This document shows positions 24-59,777 of a stretch of DNA of 64,000 nt, in pieces. The DNA is from a virus, in the IMG/VR virus record IMGVR_UViG_3300020474_000993. The stretch is one strand, 5' to 3'. Within the stretch, counting starts at the first letter, position 1. Every line of letters starts with the position of its first letter. Position numbers and translations under genes: made by a program. The notes below the pieces were generated by a model. It made no database searches. It was not told where the DNA came from and saw nothing but the letters and a program-made list of their open reading frames with translations.

Positions 24-2360
24 TTGAAGTCTAGGAAGATTGTACTTCCCAATTGGAAGGACATGCCTGATTTCTTGTATGATTTATTGATTGGTCATGA
101 AGTTGGTCACGCTCTCGTAACTCCCGCTGAAGGTTGGCACTCTGCCTCTTCTAGTAAGGGTGCAAATTTCAAATCATTCTTGAATGTCGTAGAAGATGTT
201 AGGAATGAGAGACTAGTTAAAATCAGATATCCAGGCTTGGTCAAGTCATTCTATAAGGGATATCAAATGCTTTACAAGAAAGACTTTTTCGGTCTTTCAA
301 AATTACAAAAGACTCCCCAAGAATTACCACTAATTGATAGAATCAATCTTCACGCTAAGGTTGGTGCTTTCCTTACTCTACAATTCACTGCTGAGGAACA
401 GGTCATACTTGACAAGTGTTTCGCTGCTGAGACTTGGGATGAGGTTGTCGCCATCGCTGAGGAATTATATGATTTCTCTAAGAATGAAGATGCGATGCAA
501 GATCTTTTAGAAGAACAAGGCATGGGTATGCCTCAGTTTGGTGAAGATGAAGATGACTTTGACCAAGATGAAAATGGTGAATGGTCAGAGTCACCATATG
601 GTGAAGAGGAGTCTGAAGAGGGCGACTCTGAGTCTGGTGAAGGTGAAGAGACTGAATCTGTAGAAGGTGAAGAAGGTGACGCTCAGTCTGGTGAAGGTGA
701 AGAGACTGAAGAAGAAACTGAAGAGACTACTGCTTCTACTGAAGAAGATAAAAATACTGAAGACGCTGCTGAGTCTGGTGATAGACCAGAAGATGGCGAT
801 ATCATGGAAGGTTCTGAAAATTCTGAGGGGTATAACCCCCATGATTTCGATGACGCGGAACCTAAGTCATTTACCGATGAGGCTTTTAGAGAGAATGAGG
901 GCAACCTAGTAGAATCTGGCAAGACCAATGGTGTTGTTACTGCTACCATGCCTAAGTTCAAGTCTAAGTACTTTGTTTTCCCAACTACCGATGTTTGGCC
1001 TACTAAAGATTTTGAGTATGTTTGCGGTGGAAGGTATGATAACATTGCTGCTGGTTCTGCTCAAGATGTAGAGAAAGATTTACTTGACGAATTCATGAAA
1101 AGAAACAAGGCGTCAATTAATCAACTAGTTATGCAGTTTGAGATGAAGAAAAAAGCCACCCTACTAAGGAAGGCCAAAATCAATAAAACTGGTAAGTTGA
1201 ATGAAGATAAGTTGTGGGCATACAAGTTGACTGAAGACTTGTTCCTATCAAGTACTACTGTGCCAGATGGTCAGAACCATGGCATGATGATGTTTGTAGA
1301 CTTCTCTGGTTCAATGGGTAGACACATGGCTGGTACTATTGAACAGACACTAATTCAAGTTGCCTTCTGTAAAAAAGTTGGTATCCCATTTGATGTGTAC
1401 GGTTTTTCAAACTGTGCTAACTCTCTCCAAGGTGAGAAGTTCGGAAATGCTTCTAGGGGTTCTGCTTTCCAATCTTGTGAAGAGGGTGAGTTGTTTATTG
1501 AGTCTGGTGGGTTCGCTCTGCTTCAGTTGATATCTTCTGAATTGCCTCAGAGTGAGTACAATAGATGTTTCAAAAAGTTACTTGGTTACAAAACTTCATT
1601 TGAGTGGAGAGATATGAAACCAAGAATGGAAAGATACGATGTACCTTACCATCTTTATCTTGGTTCTACTCCGCTGTCAAGTTGTATGATAGTTGGTGCT
1701 AAGATTGCTAAGAAGTTCAAGGAAAGAAATAGAATTGAGGTTATGAACACAATCGTTCTTTCCGATGGTGGAAACACTTCTGATTTAGAAGTAATCTCGG
1801 ATGGTGAGTATGAAGAGAATGGTAGGTTCAGATATTCAAATGCCATTCAAAAAGAGTTTGGTCATGGATACGGCGAAGAAAGAACTGACATTGGTAAATT
1901 CCAATTGAGAGGCAACGGTCTGTCAGTTACCACTAACATCAAAGGGATGTATGGAACAAACTACGGTAGGGTCAGTTATGAAAGTGCTACTGCTGTTACT
2001 TTTGACTACTACAAAAAGTTTGTCGGTTCCAGAATAGTTCACTTCTTCTTAGTTGATAACAACATTAGAGAAGCGAGACAGGCGTGGACTGATATGACAG
2101 GTGAGTATGCCGAGTATGATGAAAACTTTGCTAAAGAAAAGGCAACTAACTGGAAAAACAATAACTTCATGTCTTGCCAGTCTAAGTTGGGAAGTGATGC
2201 TACCTTCATTCTGAAGGGTGCTAAGTCTCTTAATGAAGAGGCAGAGTTTGAAGTCAGTTCTGATAGTAAGGCTGACATTTTGAGAGGGTTCAAGAAATTC
2301 CAGAAAGGCAAGTCCAATTCCAGACAGTTCTTGAACAGATTTATTGATGAGGTCGCGTAA
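24..2360 (+). CDS. CobT-like protein: N-terminal HExxH metallopeptidase-like domain, acidic linker, C-terminal VWA domain (probably 5'-truncated by the window edge)
   Basis: HEVGH motif; long D/E-rich linker; MIDAS-like FVDFSGSM and IVLSDG; directly upstream of a MoxR/CobS ATPase. Confidence 0.8.
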   Translation: MKSRKIVLPNWKDMPDFLYDLLIGHEVGHALVTPAEGWHSASSSKGANFKSFLNVVEDVRNERLVKIRYPGLVKSFYKGYQMLYKKDFFGLSKLQKTPQELPLIDRINLHAKVGAFLTLQFTAEEQVILDKCFAAETWDEVVAIAEELYDFSKNEDAMQDLLEEQGMGMPQFGEDEDDFDQDENGEWSESPYGEEESEEGDSESGEGEETESVEGEEGDAQSGEGEETEEETEETTASTEEDKNTEDAAESGDRPEDGDIMEGSENSEGYNPHDFDDAEPKSFTDEAFRENEGNLVESGKTNGVVTATMPKFKSKYFVFPTTDVWPTKDFEYVCGGRYDNIAAGSAQDVEKDLLDEFMKRNKASINQLVMQFEMKKKATLLRKAKINKTGKLNEDKLWAYKLTEDLFLSSTTVPDGQNHGMMMFVDFSGSMGRHMAGTIEQTLIQVAFCKKVGIPFDVYGFSNCANSLQGEKFGNASRGSAFQSCEEGELFIESGGFALLQLISSELPQSEYNRCFKKLLGYKTSFEWRDMKPRMERYDVPYHLYLGSTPLSSCMIVGAKIAKKFKERNRIEVMNTIVLSDGGNTSDLEVISDGEYEENGRFRYSNAIQKEFGHGYGEERTDIGKFQLRGNGLSVTTNIKGMYGTNYGRVSYESATAVTFDYYKKFVGSRIVHFFLVDNNIREARQAWTDMTGEYAEYDENFAKEKATNWKNNNFMSCQSKLGSDATFILKGAKSLNEEAEFEVSSDSKADILRGFKKFQKGKSNSRQFLNRFIDEVA
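615..720 (+). repeat. Imperfect 54-bp tandem repeat in the acidic linker
   Basis: AGTCTGGTGAAGGTGAAGAGACTGAA occurs twice, 54 bp apart (SGEGEETE x2). Confidence 0.75.
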
Positions 2361-2442
2361 GTGGTTGAATTTAAAGGGAAAGAAAATGAAAATAATTTCG
2401 TTTTGGCCCTTGACATTTGCTCCCAAATATGGGATCATGATC
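2358..2442 (+). promoter_or_regulatory. Early sigma70-type promoter with upstream IHF-like site and GATC in the -10 box
   Basis: TAAGTGGTTGAAT 2358-2370 (1 mismatch to reversed WATCAANNNNTTR); TTGACA 2410-2415; 17 bp; TG-n-GATCAT 2433-2438, then a second GATC. Confidence 0.8.
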
Positions 2443-2472
2443 AGGTAATTGAGAAAAAGTGAGAGGTAAATT

Positions 2473-3711
2473 ATGAGTGTAAAACAAAAAGAACAGTTCC
2501 TTCAGGCCCTTGCCGATGCGAACAATTCCGCGTCTGCCGTGTTCTCCAAAGCGGAGGCAATGCAGATTGCAAAATCAAGTGGGTTGAAAAATCCCATGTG
2601 GTTTTTTAAAGAGTGTAAAGTTGGTAGAAACCAATTTTCGCCAAACATGGCAACTCTAATGACAGTGGGTAATACTGCTCTCAAACCTGTCGCTGCTGAG
2701 GCGACTGCCCTTGAAGAGTCAGTATCTACCCTAGAACCGATTGAGACAATTCAATCGCAGCCATTAGATTCCAAGATTGTAAAACAGGCAAAACTTGCGG
2801 TGGAAATAGATAACTTAGTTCCAGATTCAGATAGTACTTATGTCCCATTTGGGTTTCATAAAGATTTGGTGAACATCATCAAGTCTGGTATGTTCTATCC
2901 TACATTTATTTGTGGTCTATCTGGTAACGGTAAGACTATGATGGTGGAACAAGTTTGTGCCAAACTCAAGAAAGAAGCTATTAGGGTTAACATCTCTATC
3001 GAAACCGATGAAGATGATTTAATCGGTGGCAATACTCTTGTCGATGGTAATGTTGTTTACAGGGAAGGCCCTGTTCTGACTGCCATGAAGAGGGGTGCGA
3101 TTCTTATCCTAGATGAGATTGATAGGGGTTCTAACAAGTTGATGTGCCTTCAGGCAATCCTTGAAGGGAAACCTTACTTCAATAAAAAGTCTGGTGAGGT
3201 CATCACGCCTGCTACTGGTTTCAATGTGATTGCTACTGCGAACACTAAGGGTCAAGGTTCCGATGACGGTAAGTTCATGGGTGCTCAAGTTCTTGATGAG
3301 GCGTTCCTAGAAAGGTTTGCTATCACGGTTGAACAAGAATATCCATCTAGTGTTCAAGAGAAAAAAATCATTATGAACAAGATGGGTGTCGCTGAGTGTG
3401 TCGATGAAGACTTCGCTGACAAGTTGGTCATGTGGGCTGACATAATCAGAAAGACTTTCTATGAAGGTGGAATCGATGAGTTGGTTTCTACCAGAAGATT
3501 GGAACACATTGTCAAGGCATATGCCATGTTCTCTGATAGACTCAAGGCAATTCAGTTGTGTGTCAATAGGTTTGATACCGACACCAAGACTGCCTTCATT
3601 GACCTTTACACTAAGGTTGATGCTGGTGCCTCTGTTGAAGAGTTGATGGACACTCCTACCGATGGTTCTACTGAAGAAACTTCTGAGGGGAATGACACTT
3701 ATGACTTCTAG
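2473..3711 (+). CDS. cobS: CobS/MoxR-like AAA+ ATPase
   Basis: Walker A GLSGNGKT, Walker B LILDEID, ATANTKG, LDEAFLERF; typical of marine T4-like phages. Confidence 0.9.
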   Translation: MSVKQKEQFLQALADANNSASAVFSKAEAMQIAKSSGLKNPMWFFKECKVGRNQFSPNMATLMTVGNTALKPVAAEATALEESVSTLEPIETIQSQPLDSKIVKQAKLAVEIDNLVPDSDSTYVPFGFHKDLVNIIKSGMFYPTFICGLSGNGKTMMVEQVCAKLKKEAIRVNISIETDEDDLIGGNTLVDGNVVYREGPVLTAMKRGAILILDEIDRGSNKLMCLQAILEGKPYFNKKSGEVITPATGFNVIATANTKGQGSDDGKFMGAQVLDEAFLERFAITVEQEYPSSVQEKKIIMNKMGVAECVDEDFADKLVMWADIIRKTFYEGGIDELVSTRRLEHIVKAYAMFSDRLKAIQLCVNRFDTDTKTAFIDLYTKVDAGASVEELMDTPTDGSTEETSEGNDTYDF

Positions 3712-3979
3712 TCCAGACTATAAGTATAATGAAGGAGCTCTTATCAAAGAGCTCCAATCTTATATTGATAACACTTATGGTGAACATTATTCACAAAACA
3801 GTTTTCAGGCAACCGAGTTTATTATTGATGGTGGCCATGGTGAAGGGTTTTGTATCGGTAATATTTTGAAGTATGCTCAGAGATATGGCAAGAAAGACGG
3901 TTATAACCGCAAAGATTTAATGAAAGTATTGCACTATGCAATCATCGCCCTCCATGTACACGATTTGGAGCACGATTAA
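3701..3979 (+). CDS. DUF3310-like conserved phage protein
   Basis: TYGEHYS...GFCIGNILKYAQRYGKK...DLMKVLHY pattern; ATG at 3701. Confidence 0.7.
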   Translation: MTSSPDYKYNEGALIKELQSYIDNTYGEHYSQNSFQATEFIIDGGHGEGFCIGNILKYAQRYGKKDGYNRKDLMKVLHYAIIALHVHDLEHD

Positions 3980-3985
3980 CCAGTT

Positions 3986-4057
3986 TGCCCCCAGCGGGCA
4001 GTCGGGGCTTGATACGCCTCTCTCTTACTCTCTCACAAGAAGTATCAAGTTCCCGAC
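3986..4057 (+). ncRNA. Intergenic double hairpin with a 26-nt CU-rich loop (candidate regulatory RNA)
   Basis: TGCCC/GGGCA hairpin; GTCGGGGCTTGATAC (4001-4015) pairs with GTATCAAGTTCCCGAC (4042-4057); loop GCCTCTCTCTTACTCTCTCACAAGAA. Confidence 0.55.
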
Positions 4058-4065
4058 AACTTTAT

Positions 4066-4073
4066 TATAAATA
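4066..4073 (+). promoter_or_regulatory. T4-type late promoter
   Basis: TATAAATA upstream of the 4106 ORF. Confidence 0.75.
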
Positions 4074-4105
4074 AGAGAGTAAGAAATAAATTAGAGGAAT
4101 GAACA

Positions 4106-4465
4106 ATGGCATATAGATTAACTTACACTAGTACTCGACCAGACACATCGGCAGATTGGTATTTCTTTTATGAAACCGCTGATGCTGGATTTGAGACTAA
4201 TGCGACACATTTTAGAAACTGGCTTGACGCGAGAAGTGATGTAACTGTTACTTTGACTGTGGCAGAAGATAATCTTTCTTTTAAATGGGAATTAGATTTT
4301 GCTGATGAAGCAGCTTACGATGCATTTGTAGTTGATAGGACTGCCCTGTTTGCAGCTGCTCCTTACAATGGCACTGCCCATTTACAGGAAACAGCTTACT
4401 TGGATTACTTATCTGCTAACAGTATGACTGGCGCTGAGACTCCAGCAGGCGGAGCAGAAGTCTAA
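4106..4465 (+). CDS. Hypothetical late protein
   Basis: 119-aa ORF with AGAGGA RBS behind a late promoter. Confidence 0.7.
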   Translation: MAYRLTYTSTRPDTSADWYFFYETADAGFETNATHFRNWLDARSDVTVTLTVAEDNLSFKWELDFADEAAYDAFVVDRTALFAAAPYNGTAHLQETAYLDYLSANSMTGAETPAGGAEV

Positions 4466-4479
4466 AGTAAAATAAGGGG

Positions 4480-4509
4480 TTGACATTTGCCCCTAACAAA
4501 TGTTATTAT
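4480..4509 (+). promoter_or_regulatory. Sigma70-type promoter for gp45
   Basis: TTGACA 4480-4485, 18 bp, TATTAT 4504-4509. Confidence 0.6.
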
Positions 4510-4537
4510 ATGATGTTTAATTTGATTGAGGTATATT

Positions 4538-5188
4538 ATGAAACTATCTAAAACAACTTTGGAGTTGTTGAAAAACTACGCCACCATTAACACAAATCTT
4601 TTGGTTAAGGAAGGTAGTAGTTTGTCAACCGTGTCCGCTTCTAAGTCAATTCTTGCAAAGGGCACAATCGAAGAGAGCTTCCCACAGGAGTTCGCAATCT
4701 ATGATTTGAATCAATTCTTATCTCTGGTCACCATGAGTGATGATACTGAGATAGAATTTTCAGATGAATATCTAACCTGTAAGTCTGGGGCTGGTAGATT
4801 TAAATTCTACTATGCAGAACCATCTATTATTGTGGCCGCACCAGACAAAGAAATTGAACTTGATAATTTCTATCAGTTCAACATCACCAAAGAACAACTC
4901 AATACTATCTATAGGGCAGCAAGTGTAATCTCTGCACCTACTCTTAGTGTTGTTTCTAATACTGGTGGTGTAACAATGAGTGTTGGTGACCCGAATACTC
5001 CTAAGAGTAATTCATTCACCACAGACATTGGTCAGGCGAATGTACAATTCGATGCTAGACTTAGTATAGAGAATCTAAAAGTAATCGCAGATGATTATGA
5101 GGTTACTGTTAGTCAGAAGAAAGCTTTTAAGTTTTCAAATTCAAAAAGAACTTACTTTTTGGCACTAGAACCGAGTTCAAATATTTAA
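4538..5188 (+). CDS. gp45: Sliding clamp (gp45)
   Basis: MKLSKTTLELLKNYATINTNL...FAIYDLNQFL...YFLALE; position in the replication module. Confidence 0.92.
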   Translation: MKLSKTTLELLKNYATINTNLLVKEGSSLSTVSASKSILAKGTIEESFPQEFAIYDLNQFLSLVTMSDDTEIEFSDEYLTCKSGAGRFKFYYAEPSIIVAAPDKEIELDNFYQFNITKEQLNTIYRAASVISAPTLSVVSNTGGVTMSVGDPNTPKSNSFTTDIGQANVQFDARLSIENLKVIADDYEVTVSQKKAFKFSNSKRTYFLALEPSSNI

Positions 5189-5358
5189 TGGCTTGGGTTG
5201 AAGGAATGATTGCCGTTTATGGAATGATATTATCTTTCATGGCGGGATGGTTAATGCCGAGAGGTAATTTTATTAGAAAATTTCAGTTGTGGTTAACCAA
5301 AAGAATATACAATTGGTTGGCTCATGAAAAAGAAAAGATTAAGGAGAAAAGTAAATGA
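5188..5358 (+). CDS. Small membrane protein (56 aa, translated by hand)
   Basis: MAWVEGMIAVYGMILSFMAGWLMP...; TAATG overlap with gp45 and ATGA overlap with the next gene. Confidence 0.6.
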   Translation: MAWVEGMIAVYGMILSFMAGWLMPRGNFIRKFQLWLTKRIYNWLAHEKEKIKEKSK

Positions 5359-5969
5359 AGATTGAAGTTGGTCAAAAGTTACCAGAAGACATCACTTTCC
5401 ACATGAGGGTAAGGGATGAAAAAATGGTAGAGGCTGGTGATGAAAATCCATATCAGTGGCAACTAGTTAACTCAAGTGACTTGTTCAAGGACAAGAGGGT
5501 TGTACTGTTTGCTTTGCCTGGCGCATTTACTCCAACATGTTCAACATATCAATTACCAGATTATGATAACAACTATGAGTTGTTCAAAAGAAATGGTATT
5601 GATGAAGTATACTGCCTGTCTGTTAATGATAGTTTTGTTATGAACAAATGGGGTGATTGGTTAGACATTGATAATGTAAAACTAATTCCAGATGGAAGTG
5701 GTTTCTTTACAGAAGCTATTGGTGCTTTGGTGAAGAAAGACAACTTAGGATTTGGGCCAAGGTCTTGGAGATATTCAGTCCTTGTCAATGATGGGGTTGT
5801 GGAAGTAGCATTTGTCGAGGAAGGATGTGAAGACGATTGTCCTGCTGACCCATATGAAGTATCTGACCCACTGACCATGATGAATTACATTCAAACTGAA
5901 AGTCCTGTAGGACAACAATATGAGTTAAATCTTCAAGATGGTGCTGGAACAGACGAAACATTTGCATAA
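5355..5969 (+). CDS. Peroxiredoxin (Prx5/AhpC-TSA family)
   Basis: LPGAFTPTCS peroxidatic motif, SVNDSFVM, RSWRYS. Confidence 0.92.
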   Translation: MKIEVGQKLPEDITFHMRVRDEKMVEAGDENPYQWQLVNSSDLFKDKRVVLFALPGAFTPTCSTYQLPDYDNNYELFKRNGIDEVYCLSVNDSFVMNKWGDWLDIDNVKLIPDGSGFFTEAIGALVKKDNLGFGPRSWRYSVLVNDGVVEVAFVEEGCEDDCPADPYEVSDPLTMMNYIQTESPVGQQYELNLQDGAGTDETFA

Positions 5970-6753
5970 AGTTGATTATGATTTAAAACCTTTATCGAAG
6001 GAACTCGCAATCGATTTTATACAGACGCATCATTATTCACCGATGATGCCTAAACTAACAAAGCATTATCTAGGATGTTTTCTCAATGGTGAATTAGTAG
6101 GTGTATTGACTCTAGGCTGGGGAACTCAACCTAGACAGACAATCAATAAAATGTTTACTGGTCTGGAGTCAAAAGATTATTGGGAGATTGGTAAGATGTG
6201 CATGACAGATGAAATGCCAACCAACTCCGAATCACAAATGATATCTCAATCAATAAAATGGATAAAGGAAAATACACCAGAGGTATCGTTCCTTTATACA
6301 ATGGCAGATGGTATCATGGGTAAATGTGGATATGTATATCAGGCAAGTAATTTTCTTTATGGTGGACAATACTTCACTCAAGTATATGAGATAAATGGAG
6401 AGAAGGTTCATCCGAGAGCTACAAGAAAATTATGCGAAGAGAACGCAAGGTTCTCTGGCAAAGACAGGATTTTTTGGTTGACTTCAGACTTTATGAAAGA
6501 GAAGGGAATCAAAAAAATAGAGGGATATATGTTTAGATATATCTTTCCGCTGAATAAGAAGGCAAAAAAATTATTAAAAAAATCAAATATGGAATGGACT
6601 AGGGTATACCCCAAAGACCACAATCTAAAATGGTTTGACAAAACATCCAATCCGAAGTTTGAAATTGAACAACCCCACTTCACATATGAAGAAGTTCTAC
6701 ACAACGCGAGAAACATATCTGGTGGTGGGGCATCTTTAAGAGGTATATTATGA
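5938..6753 (+). CDS. Mom-like GNAT-fold DNA adenine modification enzyme
   Basis: FIQTHHYS, GELVGVLTLG, WEIGKMCM..NSESQMIS, YTMAD...GYVYQASNFLYGG resemble phage Mu Mom-family motifs. Confidence 0.7.
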   Translation: MVLEQTKHLHKVDYDLKPLSKELAIDFIQTHHYSPMMPKLTKHYLGCFLNGELVGVLTLGWGTQPRQTINKMFTGLESKDYWEIGKMCMTDEMPTNSESQMISQSIKWIKENTPEVSFLYTMADGIMGKCGYVYQASNFLYGGQYFTQVYEINGEKVHPRATRKLCEENARFSGKDRIFWLTSDFMKEKGIKKIEGYMFRYIFPLNKKAKKLLKKSNMEWTRVYPKDHNLKWFDKTSNPKFEIEQPHFTYEEVLHNARNISGGGASLRGIL

Positions 6754-7517
6754 GCAAAATTGTTTTAGTATCTGGTGGATTTGACCCACTACATAAGGGA
6801 CACCTTGACCTATTGAAAGAAGCTAAGAAGATGGGTGACCATCTATCGGTAGGTCTCAATAGCGATGCGTGGTTAACTAGAAAGAAGGGGTCACCGTTCA
6901 TGTCACAATGGGACAGAATGGATATGTTGATGGAATTAGAATGTGTTGACCATGTAGTTCCTTTCAATGATGATGACGATACTGCCAAAGACTTTATAGA
7001 AAAAGCATTAGGCACATGGGGAATAGACCACAAGTTTTTATTTGTGAATGGTGGTGACAGGACAGAAGATAATATTCCAGAGATGGAACTGCGAGAAAAG
7101 TTTTCTCATGCTCATTTAGAATTTGTTTTTGGTGTTGGTGGAGATAAAACTTATTCTAGTAGTTTGGTAAACAATGTAGAAAGAGCTTGGGGTGACTATA
7201 AAGTTATTCACGAGGAACAAACTGCTAAGGTAAAAATATTGAATATTGATATTGGTAAAAGTATTAGTTACCAAAGACATTTTTATCGTGGAGAAATCTG
7301 GCATATCGTAAATGGTATGGCAATGATTAAAACCAGCAAAGGTAGGTTAGAGAATTATACATACGACTACTTGACTTCTGGTCAACACTTTAGTATAATA
7401 CCCTACGAATGGCATCAAGTGACAAATGTGGGTAATGAACCCCTAAAGATAATTGAAATTCAACATGGTTCTTATGTCGAAGAAGATGATATTGAACGCG
7501 AGGAGATAGTTCATTGA
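6750..7517 (+). CDS. Cytidylyltransferase (HxGH) fused to a mannose-6-phosphate-isomerase-type cupin
   Basis: SGGFDPLHKGH, NGGDR, KTYSSS; C-terminal RAWGDY...SYQRH..R.E.W...WHQ...IEIQHG..VEEDDIER. Confidence 0.85.
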   Translation: MSKIVLVSGGFDPLHKGHLDLLKEAKKMGDHLSVGLNSDAWLTRKKGSPFMSQWDRMDMLMELECVDHVVPFNDDDDTAKDFIEKALGTWGIDHKFLFVNGGDRTEDNIPEMELREKFSHAHLEFVFGVGGDKTYSSSLVNNVERAWGDYKVIHEEQTAKVKILNIDIGKSISYQRHFYRGEIWHIVNGMAMIKTSKGRLENYTYDYLTSGQHFSIIPYEWHQVTNVGNEPLKIIEIQHGSYVEEDDIEREEIVH

Positions 7518-7705
7518 AGAAGAAAGGTATTAAGGAAAGACGAATAGTCGCCTTAAAAAATTTGGAGAAGTCAAAGTTTACCCCAAAACAGGTAAAGTCT
7601 GGCAAGTTTGTAAAAGGTAAGCCTGAGATGGTAGACCGTTCTGAAGACAACTGGAACATCAAAAAAGATTACCAGATTGAGGTGCTTAAGAAAAGAGTAC
7701 AGTAA
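7514..7705 (+). CDS. Small basic hypothetical protein
   Basis: 63-aa K/R-rich ORF filling the gap between flanking genes. Confidence 0.55.
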   Translation: MKKKGIKERRIVALKNLEKSKFTPKQVKSGKFVKGKPEMVDRSEDNWNIKKDYQIEVLKKRVQ

Positions 7706-7707
7706 TC

Positions 7708-9441
7708 ATGTTTGATTACAATCTAATAGATGAATATCAGATTGAGGTTACTACTTACTGTAACGCCGCTTGTCCTCAATGTCCGAGGAATGTAAACGGT
7801 GGTAAGACTAATCCCTATCTACCAGTTTGTCATTTAGATAGAGATGTAATAGATGTTGCATTTCCTAAGTCCCTAGTAAAGAGACTGAGACAGGTTTTCT
7901 TTTGTGGCAGTTATGGTGACCCTATTATGCATCCAGAGTTCTTGGATATACTCAAGGATTTTAGGAGTAAAAACCCAACTCTGCATCTCTACCTTCACAC
8001 TAACGGAGGAGTCCGTGATATTAAATGGTGGGAAGAGATTGCTGAAGTGCTGGGTGACCATGGCAAAATTGATTTTGGTATTGATGGAATATGGGATACC
8101 AATCATCTTTACCGAAGAAATGTAGATTTTTCTCGCGTGATTGAAAACGCGAAAGCATTTATAAATGCTGGTGGAAAAGCACAATGGAACTATCTGGTAT
8201 ACAAACACAATGAACACCAGATATCAGAAGCAAAAAAGATGTCTGAAGAACTGGGGTTTGATGATATACTGTTTAGGTCAACTGGTAGGTTTATGAACCA
8301 CAAAACTCTTACTGAGTTAGAAAAGTGGCCAGTGCAAAACAGAGATGGTGAAATAGAATATTATTTAGAACCACCCACAGACAAACAGTACCACAATAGT
8401 AGTGTTGAGAATCTACCCAGACTACATGAAGAGTATCCAGATATAAAGGATTACTTCAACGAGACCAAAATAAAATGTGACGCTCTCACTGGAAAGAAAG
8501 TGGCAATTACTGCCGAAGGTTTAGTCTTACCATGTAATTTCTTTGAACACAATCTTTACGACATGAGATTTCATAAAAGAGATTCATTTCCTAGTAGTAA
8601 TGATTATCACTTTGATGAAGATGGCAATAACCAAGTTATGTCTCTTATCAATAGACATAATGGTGATGACCAGAATTTAAACATTCACAGTCAACCATTA
8701 GATAAAATTTTTAAAAGTGAGTTTTGGAAAGAGATTGTATGGTCATGGGAACAAGATATAGGGTGTGGCAAAATATTTGAGTGCGCTATGACTTGTGGAC
8801 AGAAGTTAACTAAAGTATGGGATCAAAATAAAAAGATGAAAGAAACTTATCGATATTATATCACAGGTAACAATCGCGGATTGGGACTAGACTTAGCAAA
8901 ACATTTTAATGGTGATGGATGTTCCAGAAGTACTGGCCAGATGCTTACTGATATTACAACTAAGGTTGGTATTCAAAGAATAGTAGAACAAAGTTTACAC
9001 TATGATGTGTTTATCAATAATGCATTTGATGGCCCGCCAGATGAACCTTGGGGTAATTTCGCTCAAGTAAATTTATTGTTAGCGGTATTTAAGGCATGGA
9101 AAGAAGAAAACAAGTCTGGATATATTTTTAATATCGGAAGTACTGGGGCATTAAGTGCCAGAGTTAGTCATGACAGATATGCAATTGCTAAGGACGCCCT
9201 TGCTACCGCGAGTAGACAATGTTCCAAGGCATTTAAAGATGACCTAGTTAAATTTAAAACTACCTTGATTACGCCAGGCAGATTGGACACACCATTGAGT
9301 AGAGGTAGAGAAACATGGACAGGCAACGGTGTGAAAACGCTTGACATTTGCAAGTTTATAGAGTATACTATGGGCATAGAAAATAATAGTATAATTGAAG
9401 ACATCATTATTGATGTTAATTTGGAGTATGGTAATGAGTGA
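7708..9441 (+). CDS. Radical SAM protein with SPASM/twitch-like Cys, fused to a C-terminal short-chain dehydrogenase (SDR)
   Basis: CNAACPQC; GSYGDP; LPC...CAMTCG; then ITGNNRGLG, FINNA, NIGS, YAIAK. Confidence 0.8.
   Translation: MFDYNLIDEYQIEVTTYCNAACPQCPRNVNGGKTNPYLPVCHLDRDVIDVAFPKSLVKRLRQVFFCGSYGDPIMHPEFLDILKDFRSKNPTLHLYLHTNGGVRDIKWWEEIAEVLGDHGKIDFGIDGIWDTNHLYRRNVDFSRVIENAKAFINAGGKAQWNYLVYKHNEHQISEAKKMSEELGFDDILFRSTGRFMNHKTLTELEKWPVQNRDGEIEYYLEPPTDKQYHNSSVENLPRLHEEYPDIKDYFNETKIKCDALTGKKVAITAEGLVLPCNFFEHNLYDMRFHKRDSFPSSNDYHFDEDGNNQVMSLINRHNGDDQNLNIHSQPLDKIFKSEFWKEIVWSWEQDIGCGKIFECAMTCGQKLTKVWDQNKKMKETYRYYITGNNRGLGLDLAKHFNGDGCSRSTGQMLTDITTKVGIQRIVEQSLHYDVFINNAFDGPPDEPWGNFAQVNLLLAVFKAWKEENKSGYIFNIGSTGALSARVSHDRYAIAKDALATASRQCSKAFKDDLVKFKTTLITPGRLDTPLSRGRETWTGNGVKTLDICKFIEYTMGIENNSIIEDIIIDVNLEYGNE
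9341..9369 (+). promoter_or_regulatory. Sigma70-type promoter for gp44, internal to the upstream gene
   Basis: TTGACA, 17 bp, TATACT. Confidence 0.65.
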
Positions 9442-10363
9442 ATTTTTATGGGTGGAGAAATATAGACCCCAAACTATTTCCGATTGTGTTCTACCAGATA
9501 GAATCAAAAGTATTTTTCAAGAGTATGTTGATGCTGGTGAAATATCCAACATGCTTTTGTGTGGCACCGCTGGTACAGGAAAGACCACGGTTGCAAAAGC
9601 ACTTTGTAATGAACTTGGTTGTGACTTTATTGTTATCAATGGTTCGGATGAAAGTGGTATTGATGTATTGCGTACTAAGATAAGAGACTTTGCTAGTACG
9701 GTAAGTTTTGAAAGTAAACCCAAAGTTGTGATTATGGATGAGGCGGATTATCTAAATCCCAATTCCACGCAACCAGCACTTAGAGCTTTTATTGAGGAGT
9801 TTTCTGGCAATTGCAGATTTATTTTCACATGCAATTTCAAGAATCGAATCATCGAACCTCTTCACAGTAGAACATCTGTTATTGAATTCAAACTCAATAA
9901 GGATGAAAAACAAAACATGGCTGGATTGTTTCTTAATAGAATGAAACATGTATTGGATTCTGAGGGAGTCACATATTCTACTCCAGTTCTCGCTGAGTTG
10001 TTAATGAAACACTTCCCAGACTATCGTAGGGTTCTAAACGAACTACAACGGTATTCGCGTAGTGGTACAATCGATGAGGGTATCCTAAGTAACATTGCTG
10101 AGATAAACACCAAGGGATTGATTGACAGTCTCAAGGATAAGGATTGGAAGAAGATGCGACAATGGGTAGTCAACAATGTTGACAATGACCCACAAGGTGT
10201 CTACAGGAAGGTCTATGACTCTCTTATCGATAAGGTGAAACAAGTACCCCACTTGGTACTATTGATTGCTGACTACCAGTACAAGAGTGCATTTGTGGCA
10301 GACCAAGAGATTAACTTGACCGCGTGTCTAACTGATATCATGGCGAGTGTGGAATTTAAATGA
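9434..10363 (+). CDS. gp44: Clamp loader large subunit (gp44)
   Basis: LWVEKYRP, GTAGTGKTT, IMDEADYL, PLHSR, FPDYRR. Confidence 0.95.
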   Translation: MSEFLWVEKYRPQTISDCVLPDRIKSIFQEYVDAGEISNMLLCGTAGTGKTTVAKALCNELGCDFIVINGSDESGIDVLRTKIRDFASTVSFESKPKVVIMDEADYLNPNSTQPALRAFIEEFSGNCRFIFTCNFKNRIIEPLHSRTSVIEFKLNKDEKQNMAGLFLNRMKHVLDSEGVTYSTPVLAELLMKHFPDYRRVLNELQRYSRSGTIDEGILSNIAEINTKGLIDSLKDKDWKKMRQWVVNNVDNDPQGVYRKVYDSLIDKVKQVPHLVLLIADYQYKSAFVADQEINLTACLTDIMASVEFK

Positions 10364-10803
10364 TTGAGGGGTTAGGTGAACCAGTAAAGACCTATGATGC
10401 TGAAGAGTTCAAGGTAAAGAAAAAAGCAATCAGTCCCTTTGATTTTGCGAACAGTATCAACTACAGTAAAGAGGATTTGATTGTAGATGATTGGTCTGAG
10501 AAACAGTACAATGCTTTTATTGTGAACAAGTCATTGTCTCATGGAATGGATACGGTTGTGGCATCTAATGAAATGAATGCTAGACCACACCTTGATGCAA
10601 AATTGCAGTATGATTTTCTAAGGGGACTTGTTCGTAAGAAGAAAAGATTTAACAAGTGGTTGAAACCAGAAAAAGAAGAACATCTGGAAATAGTAAAAGA
10701 ATATTTTGGTTATAGTAATGTCAGAGCTCAAGAAGCACTTAGACTTTTGACTGACGAAAACATCATGGAGATAAAAAAACTTTTAACAAAAGGTGGAAAA
10801 TAG
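10360..10803 (+). CDS. gp62: Clamp loader small subunit (gp62)
   Basis: SPFDFANSIN...QYDFL...KKKRFNKW...YFGYS; follows gp44. Confidence 0.9.
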   Translation: MIEGLGEPVKTYDAEEFKVKKKAISPFDFANSINYSKEDLIVDDWSEKQYNAFIVNKSLSHGMDTVVASNEMNARPHLDAKLQYDFLRGLVRKKKRFNKWLKPEKEEHLEIVKEYFGYSNVRAQEALRLLTDENIMEIKKLLTKGGK

Positions 10804-10809
10804 AAAAAC

Positions 10810-10852
10810 CATAAATACTTTTCATATTAATTAACAAAATTATGAAGGTATT
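10810..10852 (+). promoter_or_regulatory. Late-type promoter (CATAAATA) overlapping an RBS-sequestering hairpin before regA
   Basis: CATAAATA 10810-10817; AATACTTTTCATA pairs with TATGAAGGTATT, which contains the GAAGG RBS. Confidence 0.5.
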
Positions 10853-10855
10853 ATC

Positions 10856-11272
10856 ATGGTGGATGATTTTTTTGACATTGATTTTCCAGATTACAAACCA
10901 GTAGAAGTATTATTAGAAAAGGAAGATGACTTCCTAAAGGTTAGGGAAACTTTGTCTCGTATTGGAGTGGCATCAAAGAAAGACAAGACATTGTATCAGT
11001 CTTGCCATATTCTCCATAAACAGGGTAGGTATTTTATAACTCATTTCAAAGAACTTTTTGCTCTTGATGGCAAAGAAGCAGATTTGACAGATAATGATTT
11101 AAAAAGAAGAAACGCAATATCCAAACTGCTGAGTGATTGGGGTTTGGTAAAACTTCTTGATAAATCAGTTGAAGAAGACATGGCTCCATTGAGTCAGATA
11201 AAGATTTTGTCCTTCAAAGAGAAGGATGAATGGTCGCTCGTTACTAAATATAATATCGGGCGAAAACGATAA
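10856..11272 (+). CDS. regA: Translational repressor RegA
   Basis: DDFLKVRETLSRIGVAS, LYQSCHILHKQGRYFITHFKELFALDG. Confidence 0.96.
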   Translation: MVDDFFDIDFPDYKPVEVLLEKEDDFLKVRETLSRIGVASKKDKTLYQSCHILHKQGRYFITHFKELFALDGKEADLTDNDLKRRNAISKLLSDWGLVKLLDKSVEEDMAPLSQIKILSFKEKDEWSLVTKYNIGRKR

Positions 11273-11296
11273 CCCTAAACGCACAGAAGGAGAGCT

Positions 11297-11683: not shown

Positions 11684-11728
11684 AATTAAATTTTTGCCCT
11701 TGATTTTTGGAAAAAAGTCCCCATATAT

Positions 11729-11736
11729 TATAAATA
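11729..11736 (+). promoter_or_regulatory. T4-type late promoter
   Basis: TATAAATA upstream of hsp20. Confidence 0.7.
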
Positions 11737-11794
11737 ACAGTAGTAGATGCTCGGGTGAGGTCTACACTTTAACTCGCTTAATAAGGAGAAAACT

Positions 11795-12247: not shown

Positions 12248-12258
12248 ATAGTTTTATC

Positions 12259-15362: not shown

Positions 15363-15370
15363 GAGATACT

Positions 15371-19063: not shown

Positions 19064-19498
19064 TTGCTCACATTCGATATAGCTAATGCTAAAAATTATT
19101 TTATACACGAACCAGAAGAAAACCATAGACTAGAATTTTTAGAAATATCATTGGACATGATTAAAGAGGTAGCTGATAAGTTCATGGTATCACCTACTAA
19201 GGCTACACTGGTTGCTATTGCTCCCACCGATATTGTTCCATGGCATGTCGATGGTCTGTCCCACGATTACCATAGACCAGCGATAGCTTGTTTTCCACTA
19301 TTTCCCAATTCTAAGACCTATGAATGTACTGAGTACAGGGATGGATTTGTGCCATATTGTGACTCTTACATCTTCAACACGCAAGAAGAACACAGGGCAA
19401 AAGCACTGGATACGCGAAGATTAAACCTACAAATATGGTTCCAACAGGACTTTAAGGAACTAAAAAAATTGTCCGATGAAGGTAAGTTGTTGATTTAA
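19064..19498 (+). CDS. Cupin/2OG-Fe(II) oxygenase-like protein
   Basis: PWHVD...FNTQEEH.A...RLNLQI (HxD...H...R); start uncertain. Confidence 0.5.
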   Translation: MLTFDIANAKNYFIHEPEENHRLEFLEISLDMIKEVADKFMVSPTKATLVAIAPTDIVPWHVDGLSHDYHRPAIACFPLFPNSKTYECTEYRDGFVPYCDSYIFNTQEEHRAKALDTRRLNLQIWFQQDFKELKKLSDEGKLLI

Positions 19499-19567
19499 CT
19501 AGGGATTTATTTTCACTTTTTTTCGCTTTGGCCCTTGACATTTGGGGTAAAATATGAGATCATGATC
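19483..19567 (+). promoter_or_regulatory. Early promoter with IHF site and GATC in the -10 box
   Basis: TAAGTTGTTGATT 19483-19495 (perfect reversed IHF consensus); TTGACA 19535-19540; 17 bp; TG-n-GATCAT-GATC. Confidence 0.85.
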
Positions 19568-52529: not shown

Positions 52530-52598
52530 TATCAATGACTTACAAAGGCGCTTTTATCGCCGAAACGCTTGACTTTTGCTCCCATATCTGTCATGATC
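52530..52598 (+). promoter_or_regulatory. Early promoter with IHF site and GATC overlapping the -10 box
   Basis: TATCAATGACTTA 52530-52542 (perfect IHF consensus); TTGACT 52569-52574; 17 bp; TG-t-CATGAT-C. Confidence 0.8.
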
Positions 52599-52631
52599 AC
52601 TATGTAATTAATTAAAAGTGAGAGAAAAAAT

Positions 52632-56387: not shown

Positions 56388-56417
56388 GATCATACCATAG
56401 GCAGTGGCAATTGTCAA
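56388..56417 (-). promoter_or_regulatory. Minus-strand sigma70 promoter with GATC overlapping the -10 box
   Basis: On - strand: TTGACA (56417-56412), 17 bp, TG-g-TATGAT-C. Confidence 0.7.
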
Positions 56418-56490
56418 GCGAAAGGCGCCCTCTATGGACACAGTGGCAGGAGTGGCTCTGATCTTTTTTCACATAAAACGAAAATAATGC

Positions 56491-56519
56491 TTGACAAGTG
56501 CTTATCTAATGTGTATAAT
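56491..56519 (+). promoter_or_regulatory. Perfect sigma70 consensus promoter
   Basis: TTGACA, 17 bp, TATAAT. Confidence 0.8.
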
Positions 56520-56554
56520 AGGGTGTTCCCTTTAAGAAGAGTAATGGCTGCTGC

Positions 56555-56626
56555 TAAGTCATTGATATATAAGGGAATAATAAAGTAAAATAATCCTTGA
56601 CATCTGGTTCGTACTGTGTCATGATC
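56555..56626 (+). promoter_or_regulatory. Early promoter with IHF site and GATC overlapping the -10 box, driving the large ncRNA
   Basis: TAAGTCATTGATA 56555-56567; TTGACA 56597-56602; 17 bp; TG-t-CATGAT-C. Confidence 0.8.
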
Positions 56627-56631
56627 ACTAA

Positions 56632-57030
56632 GTAATTGAGATGAGGAGAGACCATTGAGTTGACAATAGATTAAACCCCAGTTAAACCGCACCATCTCAC
56701 CGTGATTGAGGTTCAGAAAGAGTGCTATCGGGGTCGGATATGAATCACGGGGCCAATGTGAAAGGTGGCATGACCACGCTCCGCATTGACCAAGGCAGGG
56801 GGGACGCAGCCCCATCAAAAGGCGGAGAGACAACTAAAAGGAGAGTCCAGTAGCGAAATTGCAAGCCGGCAAAGATGCGTGAATGGACAGGGCAGTTCGC
56901 TGCTAACGGTGTGGTGACCTAATACACCCGCCGCTCCCCCACGGTTAGGGGAGCACCACCCAGCTCGAAGCGGCCTATGCTTTGGGATCGAGGTGGTCGC
57001 CCTTACAAGGGCATCTGGCATCCCCCCTAG
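56632..57030 (+). ncRNA. Large (~400 nt) highly structured non-coding RNA of unrecognised class
   Basis: GC-rich island without a credible ORF; at least 10 helices incl. CCGTGATT/AATCACGG, CAATGTG/CGCATTG, AGTAGCGAA/TTCGCTGCT, GCTCCCC/GGGGAGC, ACCACC/GGTGGT, GCCCTT/AAGGGC and long-range AGGGGGGA/TCCCCCCT. Confidence 0.7.
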
Positions 57031-57872: not shown

Positions 57873-58658
57873 TTGGTGTGTAGCATATGGAATTCTTATG
57901 TAATGGGAGTTTATGGTGGGCATCAACCGAAAGAGATATCTTTTGAACTGACAAAGAATCAGCGGAAAGGTCAACTTTGGGTATATGGAGATTCATTCGC
58001 AGCTCAACCAGCACCTTGGTTGGATATCGTTGCAAAAGATTTAAATCTAACTCAAGCAAATCATGCGTGGCCTGGTTCTTCACTGGAATACACCAGCGTA
58101 CAAATCAACAAAACAATGGATTTGTGGGAAAAACAGGATGTCGTTATTGTTTGTCTTACTGAGGTATTGCGTATATGGGAAAGATGGGAACATAAAGACC
58201 ACGGTACTAAACATTTCAGAGGACAACATGTACCCGAATCTGCAATTCTTGATATGAAAGACAGCAAGGGTTCCAAGGGTCTTGAGAATCTACCTCTTCA
58301 ACCTACCATACAGATTAACACTGCACTACGCAATCATCTCATAAGAGTTTTATCCTATGCGAATGTGCGTGCCGTGGTGGTGCTTGATGGGTTTAAGAAC
58401 AAGGCAAACAGTTCCATGACTATTCCGAGCAATCTAATCTATAGTGAAGAGGGATATCTCATGGAGGTTAGTATCAAGGAACCAGAGGGTTGGTACAATT
58501 TCAGCACATTCGGGCCAGACTGGCGTAAGAATCACCTATCGGAAGTTAACCACCCTATCCTAGCGGAAAAGGTAGTAACAGGAGTACTGGAAAAATCGTC
58601 CGTAAACCTTACCTTCGGTTTTGAAAAAGATATATTTAGGGTCGGTGAGGAAAAATAG
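57873..58658 (+). CDS. SGNH/GDSL-like hypothetical protein (start uncertain)
   Basis: WVYGDSFA; NHA.PGSS; C-terminal NHLSEVNH. Confidence 0.6.
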   Translation: MVCSIWNSYVMGVYGGHQPKEISFELTKNQRKGQLWVYGDSFAAQPAPWLDIVAKDLNLTQANHAWPGSSLEYTSVQINKTMDLWEKQDVVIVCLTEVLRIWERWEHKDHGTKHFRGQHVPESAILDMKDSKGSKGLENLPLQPTIQINTALRNHLIRVLSYANVRAVVVLDGFKNKANSSMTIPSNLIYSEEGYLMEVSIKEPEGWYNFSTFGPDWRKNHLSEVNHPILAEKVVTGVLEKSSVNLTFGFEKDIFRVGEEK

Positions 58659-59684
58659 GTGGATTATCAGATTGATGGTATAGACGGGCTTGGCGTTAAG
58701 GGGGAACTATGGGGTATAATTGTTTCGGGGAAGTTTAAAGAACATGATTTATTAGTCTATAACGCATACGAAGCAGAACTGGGCCCAGAAACCGATTACT
58801 ATGAGATGGGTAAGTATGTCAAAAGTTATACAGAGATTACTGGCGCATCCAATCTAAATCGTTTCATACCTAGACTAGATAATGTACATATAATTTCATG
58901 GCCATATCACTGGTTAAATGATACAATATGTCGATACGGTTCAAAGGGTGACCAGATTGACCTTAATTATTTCAAAGAGATTAACGCATATCCACCACCA
59001 AAACATCTATTTACCAGTATGATACGACAACCAAAACCCCATCGTGAAATGCTTTGGGATTTATTAAAGAGTCGGGACATGGTAAACGAGTTTTGTAGTT
59101 ACGCACCAGAGGGTGTACACATTGATTTGAAAGAACAAAAATCTGAGGGTCAGATTTTCTTTCACAATGATGACGAGGATATACAGGCAAGAACGCATAT
59201 GCCTCCGACTTGGTATAAAGATGTATTATTCGATGTTATCTGTGAAACACATCATGAAGATAATATGATGTTCTTCACCGAAAAGACTTGGAAGGCATTT
59301 CTTGGTATGAAGTATCCGCTTATTCTAGGTGCGAAAGGTATACATGCACATTTGGAAAAGTTGGGATTTAGATTTCCGTGGAATCTACCATATCGATTCG
59401 ATGGAGAACCTCACATATACAATAGGGCAAAACAACTAGTGCTTACTCTGGAGTATGTACAGGAGGCAACGGTGAAAAGGGTATCGCAATTTGGAAAAGA
59501 GGCCACCGTTGGGGATTTATATAAGGAATGGTATAATGACTTACTATGGAATCAGCGATTAGCACTCAATTTATGTGCTGAGAACCCCCCAGATTGCTTC
59601 GGATCAGTCCCATGTCCGCCAGAATGGTATCGACATTGGTTATTTTCGAGTTCAATAGCGACAAATACAACAGCAAATTTATAA
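58659..59684 (+). CDS. Hypothetical glycosyltransferase-like protein
   Basis: R.PKPHR; FDVICET...FFTEKTWK...P.ILG...LEKLGF pattern. Confidence 0.45.
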   Translation: MDYQIDGIDGLGVKGELWGIIVSGKFKEHDLLVYNAYEAELGPETDYYEMGKYVKSYTEITGASNLNRFIPRLDNVHIISWPYHWLNDTICRYGSKGDQIDLNYFKEINAYPPPKHLFTSMIRQPKPHREMLWDLLKSRDMVNEFCSYAPEGVHIDLKEQKSEGQIFFHNDDEDIQARTHMPPTWYKDVLFDVICETHHEDNMMFFTEKTWKAFLGMKYPLILGAKGIHAHLEKLGFRFPWNLPYRFDGEPHIYNRAKQLVLTLEYVQEATVKRVSQFGKEATVGDLYKEWYNDLLWNQRLALNLCAENPPDCFGSVPCPPEWYRHWLFSSSIATNTTANL

Positions 59685-59715
59685 AAAAATTCAATTATTT
59701 TGCTTTATCTAGGAA

Positions 59716-59777
59716 TATCAATGGCTTACAGAGGCAGCTTTTTCTTGACATTTGCTTCAAATTATGGGATCATGATC
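59716..59777 (+). promoter_or_regulatory. Early promoter with IHF site and GATC in the -10 box
   Basis: TATCAATGGCTTA 59716-59728; TTGACA 59745-59750; 17 bp; TG-g-GATCAT-GATC. Confidence 0.85.

Follow-up and report, generated by a model that had tools for sequence, protein, structure and literature searches.

An early promoter class with a phased IHF-type site and GATC in the -10 box of an uncultured marine T4-like phage

The window analysed here is 64,000 nt of IMG/VR record IMGVR_UViG_3300020474_000993, from an uncultured marine T4-like phage whose genome is 62% A+T. Five plus-strand promoters in it share a common geometry, with TTGAC[AT], a spacer of exactly 17 bp and a TGn-extended -10. 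In class A (-10 at 2433, 19558 and 59768) the -10 reads GATCAT and is followed by GATC, and in class B (52592 and 56620) it reads CATGAT followed by C, so that GATC occupies positions -12 to -9 and -6 to -3 in the former and -9 to -6 in the latter. A preliminary description had reported these promoters (-35 at 2410, 19535, 52569, 56597 and 59745), together with an upstream match to the IHF consensus WATCAANNNNTTR at each, perfect in four cases and with one mismatch in the fifth. Direct reading and a pattern search bore out the geometry and the GATC overlaps, and the IHF matches and their gaps to the -35 (39, 39 and 29 bp in reverse orientation, 26 and 16 bp in forward) are as it gave them.

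The first class A promoter (2410..2442, plus strand) has its -35, TTGACA, at 2410-15, an extended -10, TGG GATCAT, at 2433-38 and a second GATC at 2439-42; its transcript is predicted to start near 2445 (GTAAT), ahead of a cobS-like AAA+ gene (2473-3711). Its IHF-like element (2358..2370, minus; gap 39) overlaps the stop codon of a cobT-like gene and carries one mismatch, unlike the perfect copies in relatives. At 19535..19567 (plus), a class A promoter with its -35 at 19535-40, GATCAT at 19558-63 and second GATC at 19564-67 follows a perfect element (19483..19495, minus; gap 39) and drives a DUF7717 early gene with its ATG at 19595. The third class A promoter (59745..59777, plus; -35 at 59745-50, GATCAT at 59768-73, second GATC at 59774-77) lies 16 bp from a perfect forward element (59716..59728, plus) and serves a widely conserved 120-aa early gene (59807-60169, phrog_10415). 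Of the class B promoters, that at 52569..52598 (plus; TTGACT, extended -10 TGT CATGAT at 52592-97, GATC at 52595-98) has a perfect forward element (52530..52542, plus) at a gap of 26; compared with the promoter at 59745, it contains a 10-bp insert (a small hairpin, 52547-61), equal to one extra helical turn, and downstream lie a 76-aa ORF (52632) and further genes. The other (56597..56626, plus; -35 at 56597-602, CATGAT at 56620-25, GATC at 56623-26) has a perfect element in reverse orientation (56555..56567, minus; gap 29) and drives a non-coding GC-rich stretch followed by a PNKP-type HAD phosphatase gene. The gene set of the class comprises cobT-like, cobS-like, DUF7717 and phrog_10415 genes and one non-coding RNA.

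Two further promoters named in the preliminary description are also real. A leftward sigma70-like promoter (56388..56417, minus) consists of TTGACA, 17 bp and TATGAT followed by C, with GATC overlapping the -10 in the class B register; it has no IHF-like site, and its GATC is kept in the 161-kb relative G001 despite a different spacer. The promoter at 61820..61848 (plus) is a canonical TTGACA-17-TATAAT whose spacer GATC (61837-40) adjoins the -10, and its copy in G001 is identical. GATC overlap with the -10 hexamer, a trait of Dam-sensitive sigma70 promoters, is therefore present in both classes and in the leftward promoter. The promoters at 4480, 9341, 12805 and 34977 have a canonical -10 with neither GATC nor an IHF-like match, as had been claimed.

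Alignment shows the cassettes to be repeats of an early sigma70 promoter, Shine-Dalgarno and start codon placed at module borders, with a conserved leader (GTAAT...GAGAG). The five promoters represent only two or three homologous families and so should not be counted as independent cases. Folding of the 70 nt of DNA before each -35 scored no better than folding of shuffled sequences (z -0.91 to +1.53), giving no indication of an upstream stem-loop, and no terminator-like sites were found at the two promoters within positions 1-20000.

Over the whole window the IHF consensus is not enriched (9 matches versus 7.1 expected); four of the nine lie no more than 40 bp upstream of the five promoters. 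The tighter motif WATCAANNNCTTA occurs four times in the window where 0.86 are expected, a count reached by none of 100 shuffles. Among marine T4-like phages, WATCAA-N3-CTTA was present in 40 of 371 promoter clusters, compared with 3 to 5 for control motifs, and 36 of these 40 elements sit at gaps of 5, 15-17 or 26-27 bp (forward) or 28-30 or 39-41 bp (reverse), whereas control motifs were scattered. The gaps fall on discrete positions (5, 16 and 26 forward; 18-19, 28-30 and 39 reverse) separated by steps of 10-11 bp, and the 39-bp gap is kept exact across highly divergent intervening sequence. The element is thus held in a fixed helical phase relative to the promoter. In the window and G001 together, all six GATC-type promoters have an IHF-like site (at one promoter it departs from the consensus by one base in either genome), and about 20 canonical promoters have none. 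Since relatives include a class A promoter without the site, and since the site also accompanies TATAAT-type -10 boxes in phages lacking the GATC purge, the two features are not obligatorily coupled. The proposed architecture is real, conserved and non-random.

Judged by its distribution, the IHF-like element is old and widespread among marine T4-like phages, and its reading as an IHF-type bend site is well supported at the sequence level. T- or A-rich runs lie 8-20 bp past the W end of all five copies, as seen by eye in a genome of 62% A+T. We take the IHF dyad to lie at the W of WATCAA, after the 1IHF structure, and the coincidence of bend centres between the two orientations depends on this placement. 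One preprint goes no further than locating WATCAR between kinks 9 bp apart (10.1101/382655).

GATC is rare in this phage. The window contains 18 copies where about 215-226 are expected, a 12- to 16-fold purge; ACGT is absent (70-215 expected), and CCGG is about 4- to 8-fold below expectation in the clade. Ten of the 18 GATCs lie inside seven promoter cores, and an eleventh (56460) falls between two of those cores; for 13 promoter cores covering about 0.9% of the window, holding 10 of 18 has a binomial P of about 2e-16. Every GATC in the window that was picked up by a crude non-coding mask is in a promoter core, against about 18 expected in non-coding DNA. G001 has 34 GATCs (555 expected), 13 of them at promoters, and several coding GATCs are also common to it and the window. 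When the cassettes are collapsed, promoter GATCs reduce to about five origins versus 1.9 expected without a purge, a marginal excess (P about 0.04, by our own estimate). Among non-IHF promoters, 3 of about 20 carry GATC, with about 0.14 per promoter expected without a purge. The cultured OM43 phage Melnitz is purged as well (4 GATCs versus 176 expected in 50 kb), and neither it nor certain other GATC-purged relatives have promoter GATC. A genome-wide purge implies, though only indirectly, that some enzyme of the host recognises GATC, the likeliest candidate being a GATC methylase.

The preliminary description had made its case depend on conservation in related phages, and the class A pattern recurs at 54 IMG/VR loci, about 45 of which are true relatives. 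Several long contigs carry three to four class A copies each, and G001 has six GATC-type promoters in total. In 596 Gb of bacterial genomes the same pattern gave only 20 matches, a chance-like number. When orthologous promoters were retrieved through their downstream genes, independently of the motif, a GATC -10 was confined to the close clade and some other GATC-poor lineages (L255, L089/L093 and L086), and more distant orthologous promoters had TATAAT in GATC-poor and other genomes alike. The GATC -10 is thus specific to this clade. The tetramer behaves as a unit: bases flanking GATCATGATC vary freely, and the constrained block stops exactly at the GATC borders. Promoters with a single GATC exist with either site alone (84166 and 16913 in G001, and L086). 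L113 has a class B cassette with CATAAT, and the cobS promoter is class A in the window and class B in L255, a register shift of 3 bp. As the GATCs survive the 12- to 16-fold purge and the block ends at their borders, functional retention is plausible. The spacer, however, is nearly as conserved as the -10 and the clade is shallow, which counts against claiming purifying selection on GATC itself.

Searches of G001 and two further relatives (G002 and G003) found no Dam-type (PF02086, PF05869), N6/N4 (PF01555) or C5 (PF00145) methyltransferase, and a 91%-complete relative contained no DNA methyltransferase, HU/IHF protein (PF00216) or MutH. The phage dam gene that had been envisaged outside the window was therefore not found in these relatives, and any GATC methylation would have to be host-derived. 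The host is probably a proteobacterium: cultured relatives of two of the early genes all have Proteobacteria as hosts.

Regulation by a Dam site that overlaps the -10 is known from the IS10, dnaA p2 and glnS promoters (PMC3701705), and that of the IS50 transposase promoter involves two GATCs (PMC4265352). For IS10, it is the contact of polymerase with the promoter that methylation directly affects (PMC3701705, PMC4265352). Like IS10 pIN, IS50/Tn5 T1, dnaA p2 and glnS, the phage class has GATC on a sigma70 -10, and the two GATCs of IS50 resemble class A. In contrast to IS10 and IS50, the phage feature defines a whole early-promoter class of a lytic T4-like phage, the genome is otherwise purged of GATC, an IHF-type site is added and the methylation is putative. 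Another parallel comes from Mycobacterium tuberculosis, where MamA sites keep a constant place on -10 boxes (PMC3701705): several promoters share one arrangement of methylation motif and overlapping -10, which suggests a common mechanism as opposed to a separate one at each locus. The motif, organism and direction of effect differ, however, and GATC takes three registers relative to the -10 in the phage compared with one for MamA, which leaves no obvious single stereochemical mechanism.

The purge itself has precedents: according to the passage of PMC5014478 that cites McClelland 1984 and Deschavanne & Radman 1991, GATC is counter-selected in phiX174 and other coliphages. Our phage shares their strong genome-wide underrepresentation and has ACGT and CCGG purged too, but its residual GATC is concentrated in promoter -10 regions and its host is marine. 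The cassettes also recall the PeSLs of T4-type phages, mobile regulatory cassettes that join an early promoter to a stem-loop (PMC2839356, PMC4122927). Both are repeated cassettes, located where variable gene modules begin or end, in which a near-consensus sigma70 early promoter is preceded by an upstream element and followed by a Shine-Dalgarno and a start codon, and the swap of cassette class at one orthologous gene (the cobS promoter) adds to the likeness. Unlike PeSLs, the phage cassettes lack the stem-loop, have an IHF-type site in its place and carry GATC in the -10.

Lambda pL and Mu Pe are IHF-assisted phage early promoters, and the phage elements presumably lie closer to the -35 than that of lambda pL. 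With such promoters (geometry in 10.1101/382655) the present class shares a perfect WATCAANNNNTTR, a strong sigma70 promoter and a fixed helical face. It differs in that its sites, which are predicted, number many per genome and hundreds across marine T4-like phages, with quantised gaps.

The anatomy, conservation and phasing of the cassettes, the GATC purge and the lack of a methylase in the relatives searched are observed; we infer IHF binding, GATC methylation and an effect on transcription together with its direction, in a scheme where composite early-promoter cassettes would be read by host sigma70 RNA polymerase. Relative to the start site, the bend site would be centred at roughly -65 or -75, a distance of about 30 or 40 bp from the -35, in either orientation, and a host IHF-like protein would most likely wrap upstream DNA back onto the polymerase. 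The -10 is TGn-extended yet deliberately non-consensus, the clade having apparently rewritten it to GATCAT-GATC or CATGAT-C, with one or two GATCs in the melting region. As at the transposase promoters of IS10 and IS50, open-complex formation may depend on whether these GATCs are methylated, which would give the class a response absent from canonical TATAAT promoters. The switch proposed in the preliminary description, in which methylation state or IHF level would time the immediate-early genes, is still hypothetical. We hold this role for promoter-GATC methylation tentatively, as a possibility somewhat short of an even chance. An extension that we consider rather unlikely is that the promoter GATCs let the phage genome sense its own past epigenetically: virions from a GATC-methylating host would deliver marked DNA, whereas DNA that came from a different host, or had just been replicated, would be unmarked. 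With these adenines in the melted -10, the IHF-assisted class would fire differently on marked and unmarked DNA, serving as a restriction-history alarm or an early shut-off timer without a phage methylase.

The GATCs may instead have no regulatory meaning, if a GATC -10 had one or two origins and then spread with duplicated, recombination-homogenised cassettes comparable to PeSLs, escaping the purge through constraint on promoter sequence or through shielding by early-bound polymerase and IHF. Cassette copying is evident in about 100 bp of similarity shared by the promoters at 2410 and 19535, and likewise by those at 52569, 59745 and 84143 of G001; the class change at the cobS promoter is as cassette exchange predicts, and window-G001 alignment blocks break or restart at cassette borders (e.g., 59682, 61798 and 12802). 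The collapsed promoter count near the unpurged expectation, the 3 of about 20 non-IHF promoters with GATC and the conservation of several coding GATCs agree with such copying. Against it, single changes (CATGAT to CATAAT; GATCAT to TATCAT or GATAAT) would both remove the GATC and improve the -10, and none is fixed in the clade, including the G-to-A change that would turn the class B box into the CATAAT of L113. Moreover, the second GATC hardly varies although the bases around it do, and it occupies -6 to -3, a part of sigma70 promoters under weak constraint; L146/L147 lost this second GATC and gained one in the spacer; and non-coding DNA outside promoter cores is purged. On balance we doubt this explanation, while giving it real weight. 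We find it improbable that the palindrome GATCATGATC, or the core TCATGATC(A), is an operator for a protein that occludes the -10, such as a phage early-shut-off repressor or a host regulator. In its favour, repressors most often act from operators that overlap the -10, the 10 bp of GATCATGATC form a perfect palindrome, CATGATC is common to both classes and the class is limited to a defined gene set. The shared core nevertheless shifts by 3 bp relative to the -35 between classes A and B, each GATC is found without the other or at a different place (within the spacer, or following TAGAAT or TATATT), and the palindrome has no constraint on its flanks. No protein emerged as a candidate to bind it, and the motif has no detectable role in bacterial genomes.

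A separate question is whether the upstream element is an IHF site at all. It might instead be bound by a different protein, of the host or of the phage, or act as a phased intrinsic bend or UP-like element, and match the E. coli consensus by coincidence. Its sequence (AATCAA[TC][GA][AG]CTTA, with the "N4" part conserved) varies less than the IHF consensus allows, no copy is present in the examined regions of two cultured relatives, Melnitz and Mosig, and two copies overlap the stop codons of upstream genes. Yet WATCAANNNNTTR is matched perfectly in both orientations, T- or A-rich tracts (by eye only) lie on the non-consensus side, and phasing is a strict 10-11 bp, with the orientation series converging on the same centres if the dyad is at W. 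The phage has no HU/IHF-family protein of its own, and its early-gene relatives infect Proteobacteria, where IHF is standard. A non-IHF identity therefore seems to us the less likely outcome.

Marine T4-like phages lack MotA/AsiA, and their temporal control is poorly understood: published work on pelagimyophages and the OM43 phage Melnitz either found no middle promoters (PMC9004378) or was unable to predict middle or late ones (PMC7029224). About a tenth of sigma70-like early promoters in this large and abundant group carry a phased IHF-type site, which would constitute a second, host-factor-dependent promoter class, and one clade has put an otherwise-purged GATC into the -10 of exactly this class. 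Even if the GATCs are without function, purge patterns would provide sharp host-range signatures for uncultured phages: this clade lacks ACGT and is depleted in GATC and CCGG, and other clades purge other tetramers. Our data suggest, without proving, that host GATC methylation and DNA bending tune the first genes of this phage. If methylation does matter, the phage would provide the first described case, among T4-like phages, of epigenetic control over early genes that relies on host enzymes alone, and restriction avoidance would be tied to gene regulation.

Direct reading and a pattern search agree on five promoters in the window, named for the first base of the -35 (P2410, P19535, P52569, P56597 and P59745), which share TTGAC[AT], a 17-bp spacer and a TGn-extended -10, as the preliminary description had claimed. 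The -10 reads GATCAT followed by GATC in class A (2410, 19535 and 59745) and CATGAT followed by C in class B (52569 and 56597). Upstream matches to the IHF consensus (WATCAA-N3-CTTA type) are present at the gaps first described, namely 39, 39 and 29 bp to the -35 for reverse elements and 26 and 16 bp for forward ones. The promoters at 56417 (minus strand) and 61820 do bear GATC, and the canonical promoters at 4480, 9341, 12805 and 34977 have neither GATC nor an IHF-like match. The original observation is confirmed; its interpretation, in which methylation state or IHF level would time immediate-early genes, is partly supported.

Transcripts are predicted to start at a conserved GTAAT, with GAGAG-type ribosome-binding sites. 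The GTAAT start and a repeated GAGAG ahead of ATG are common to the leaders at 2445-2472, 19570-19594, 52604-52631 and 59780-59806, and leaders like GTATAAACTGAGA...GAGAG also lie 3' of canonical promoters in distant relatives, so conservation of the leader extends beyond that of the -10. Four of the window's 18 GATCs fall within 600 bp (56388-56986) around three promoters: the leftward one at 56417, a perfect consensus at 56491 directed through the IHF-like site, and P56597. A GC-rich non-coding stretch follows this cluster, and the region could be a control hub or origin-like.

The promoter GATCs stand out against a genome largely purged of this tetramer (18 observed in the window versus 215–226 expected). 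Ten of the 18 lie within 13 promoter cores, which together cover ~0.9% of the window (P ~2e-16), and all GATCs caught by a crude non-coding mask are at promoters, against an expectation of ~18 for non-coding DNA. Our reference relative G001 (IMGVR_UViG_3300020421_001669; 161 kb and 91% complete) aligns collinearly to the window at 76–90% identity and contains 34 GATCs versus 555 expected. Thirteen of these are at promoters, one being a further class A promoter ahead of a cobT-like gene, just upstream of the window's start. Counter-selection of GATC is known in coliphages (PMC5014478).

Neither Dam-type, N6/N4 or C5 methyltransferases nor a MutH/Sau3AI-type nuclease are encoded by G001 and two further relatives (G002 and G003). 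The phage dam gene that the preliminary description proposed seeking beyond the window was thus not found in these genomes, and any methylation must therefore be host-derived. The purge is indirect evidence for a host system that reads GATC; a GATC methylase is usually part of such systems.

A class A pattern search of IMG/VR returned 54 loci, ~45 of which are true relatives with orthologous promoters, the motif being conserved in these related phages. One relative, IMGVR_UViG_2778261681, seems, judging by its record number, to derive from sequencing of a single cell or genome and not of a metagenome. A fourth class A promoter (GATCATGATC), which has no IHF-like element, occurs in relatives ahead of a gene starting MSHWVNDR (loci L016, L030, L033, L040, L041, L044, L047, L049 and L050). 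It sits directly after a coding region, and the gene was not seen in the window or G001. The same pattern had 20 matches in 596 Gb of bacterial genomes, in unrelated taxa with normal GATC content and no flank similarity; these resemble chance and therefore point neither to a host nor to a bacterial regulon. When promoters were also fetched motif-free, via their downstream proteins, a sigma70-like promoter proved to precede these early genes in nearly all marine T4-like phages. The -10 is TATAAT in distant relatives, most of which lack GATC depletion; outside the close clade, the GATC -10 turns up only in a handful of further GATC-poor lineages (L255, L089/L093 and L086). Promoter GATC as a general trait of GATC-purged relatives was rejected, there being none in the OM43 phage Melnitz or in GATC-free clades (L166, L169, L174 and others).

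The upstream element has a geometry of its own. The IHF consensus is not enriched across the window (9 versus 7.1 expected), with four of the nine matches at these promoters, and a tighter motif, WATCAANNNCTTA, occurs four times versus 0.86 expected. Across the window and G001, a site is found at 6/6 GATC-type promoters (one of these sites has one mismatch in each genome) and at none of ~20 canonical promoters. Among 371 non-redundant promoter clusters, leaving out loci selected through the GATC motif, 40 have the consensus within 100 bp upstream (reversed motif, 5; swapped motif, 3). Gaps there cluster at 16 bp (n=10; 15–17, n=13), 26–27 bp (n=5) and 5 bp for forward elements, and at 39 bp (n=8) and 28–30 bp (n=8) for reverse ones. 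The 39-bp gap is exact despite intervening sequence diverged beyond recognition, and is also kept with -10 boxes such as TAAGCT, TATACT or TATTAT. An obligatory coupling of IHF site and GATC -10 was rejected from the promoters of relatives. If the IHF dyad lies at the W of WATCAR, where we take it to be from the 1IHF structure, both orientations would put the bend centre 29–30 or 39–40 bp upstream of the -35. WATCAR is flanked by the two kinks, 9 bp apart, that IHF introduces into DNA (10.1101/382655). Compared with its homolog P59745, P52569 has a 10-bp insert at 52547-52561 (a small hairpin, GGCG...CGCC) downstream of the IHF-like site and ahead of the -35, which shifts the site exactly one helical turn (gap 16 to 26). 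Separately, we consider it rather unlikely that the element is bound by something other than IHF. No HU/IHF-family protein was found among phage-encoded proteins, which argues against a site for a TF1-like phage protein of that family. By eye, none of the Fur, LexA, CRP, PhoB, CtrA or DnaA boxes fits either motif.

Our analysis leads us to favor, tentatively, a reading in which these are sigma70 early promoters assisted by IHF, and in which GATCs within the melted region would confer sensitivity to GATC methylation by the host. The GATCs might instead be retained passively in cassettes that recombine, are constrained or are shielded, a doubtful but real contender. The cassettes are homologous, so that ~5 origins versus 1.9 expected without purge is a marginal excess only, and column-wise conservation within the clade, which is too shallow for this and whose promoter spacers are conserved as well, does not tell selection on GATC apart from conservation of promoters in general. 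That the GATCs form part of a palindromic operator for a sequence-specific protein seems improbable. Bases flanking GATCATGATC vary freely on both sides among relatives; a single GATC, either one, stands alone at G001 84166, G001 16913 and L086; L146/L147 have lost the second GATC and have a new one in the spacer; and the cobS promoter, class A in the window, differs by 3 bp in register in L255, where it is class B. The class B cassette in L113 has CATAAT, so one transition would improve the -10 and remove GATC, and this change was not seen in the clade. Together these patterns favor selection on GATC itself over a longer operator, subject to the caveats above on homologous cassettes and the shallow clade.

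The methylation sensitivity proposed for these IHF-assisted promoters would resemble that of the IS10 and IS50 transposase promoters (PMC3701705, PMC4265352), and in their working they would recall both Dam-sensitive -10 promoters and IHF-assisted phage early promoters. Their cassettes resemble the PeSL cassettes of T4-type phages (PMC2839356, PMC4122927) but were rejected as members on the stem-loop. Our literature search found no paper that connects marine T4-like phages with IHF or with promoter GATC.

The source is an uncultured marine T4-like phage (window G+C, 38%) whose gp43 DNA polymerase shares at most 47% identity with cyanomyophage counterparts. A near-identity search of cultured phages gave short gp43 matches to cyanophages only, with none similar at the DNA level, and in a sensitive search with one promoter cassette no cultured phage carried it. 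For two early genes, every cultured relative comes from a phage that infects Proteobacteria: Pelagibacter phage Mosig has the DUF7717 gene (42%), and the 120-aa gene at 59807 occurs in Melnitz (63%), a Paraglaciecola virus, and Sinorhizobium and Agrobacterium phages. Relative to G001 (142368-142454), the window has ~1.1 kb extra at 58573-59682 (ORF 58659-59684), ending exactly at the start of the P59745 cassette, and other alignment blocks also restart, at 12802 and 61798, shortly before promoters. These borders are compatible with module exchange at promoter cassettes.

Avoidance extends to other short words. ACGT is absent from the 64-kb window (70–215 expected) and from G001 (173 expected in 161 kb), and CCGG occurs six times in the window versus 47 expected; the hexamers ACGCGT, TCGCGA and TCTAGA are close to absent from the window and G001 (L055-L063). 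Melnitz (L245, 1-50000) has four GATCs versus 176 expected, none at promoters, with CGCG at 0 versus 17 and CCGG at 3 versus 15; a text search of the Melnitz paper (PMC9004378) found no mention of GATC. Marine T4-like clades differ in the tetramer purged, some being GATC-free with normal ACGT and others the reverse (L101, L106, L111, L112, L129, L166, L169, L174, L175, L177 and L182), and each seems to have its own restriction-avoidance fingerprint. So complete a purge of ACGT points to a nuclease, of the host or perhaps the phage, for this tetramer, and its absence could serve as a host-range signature.
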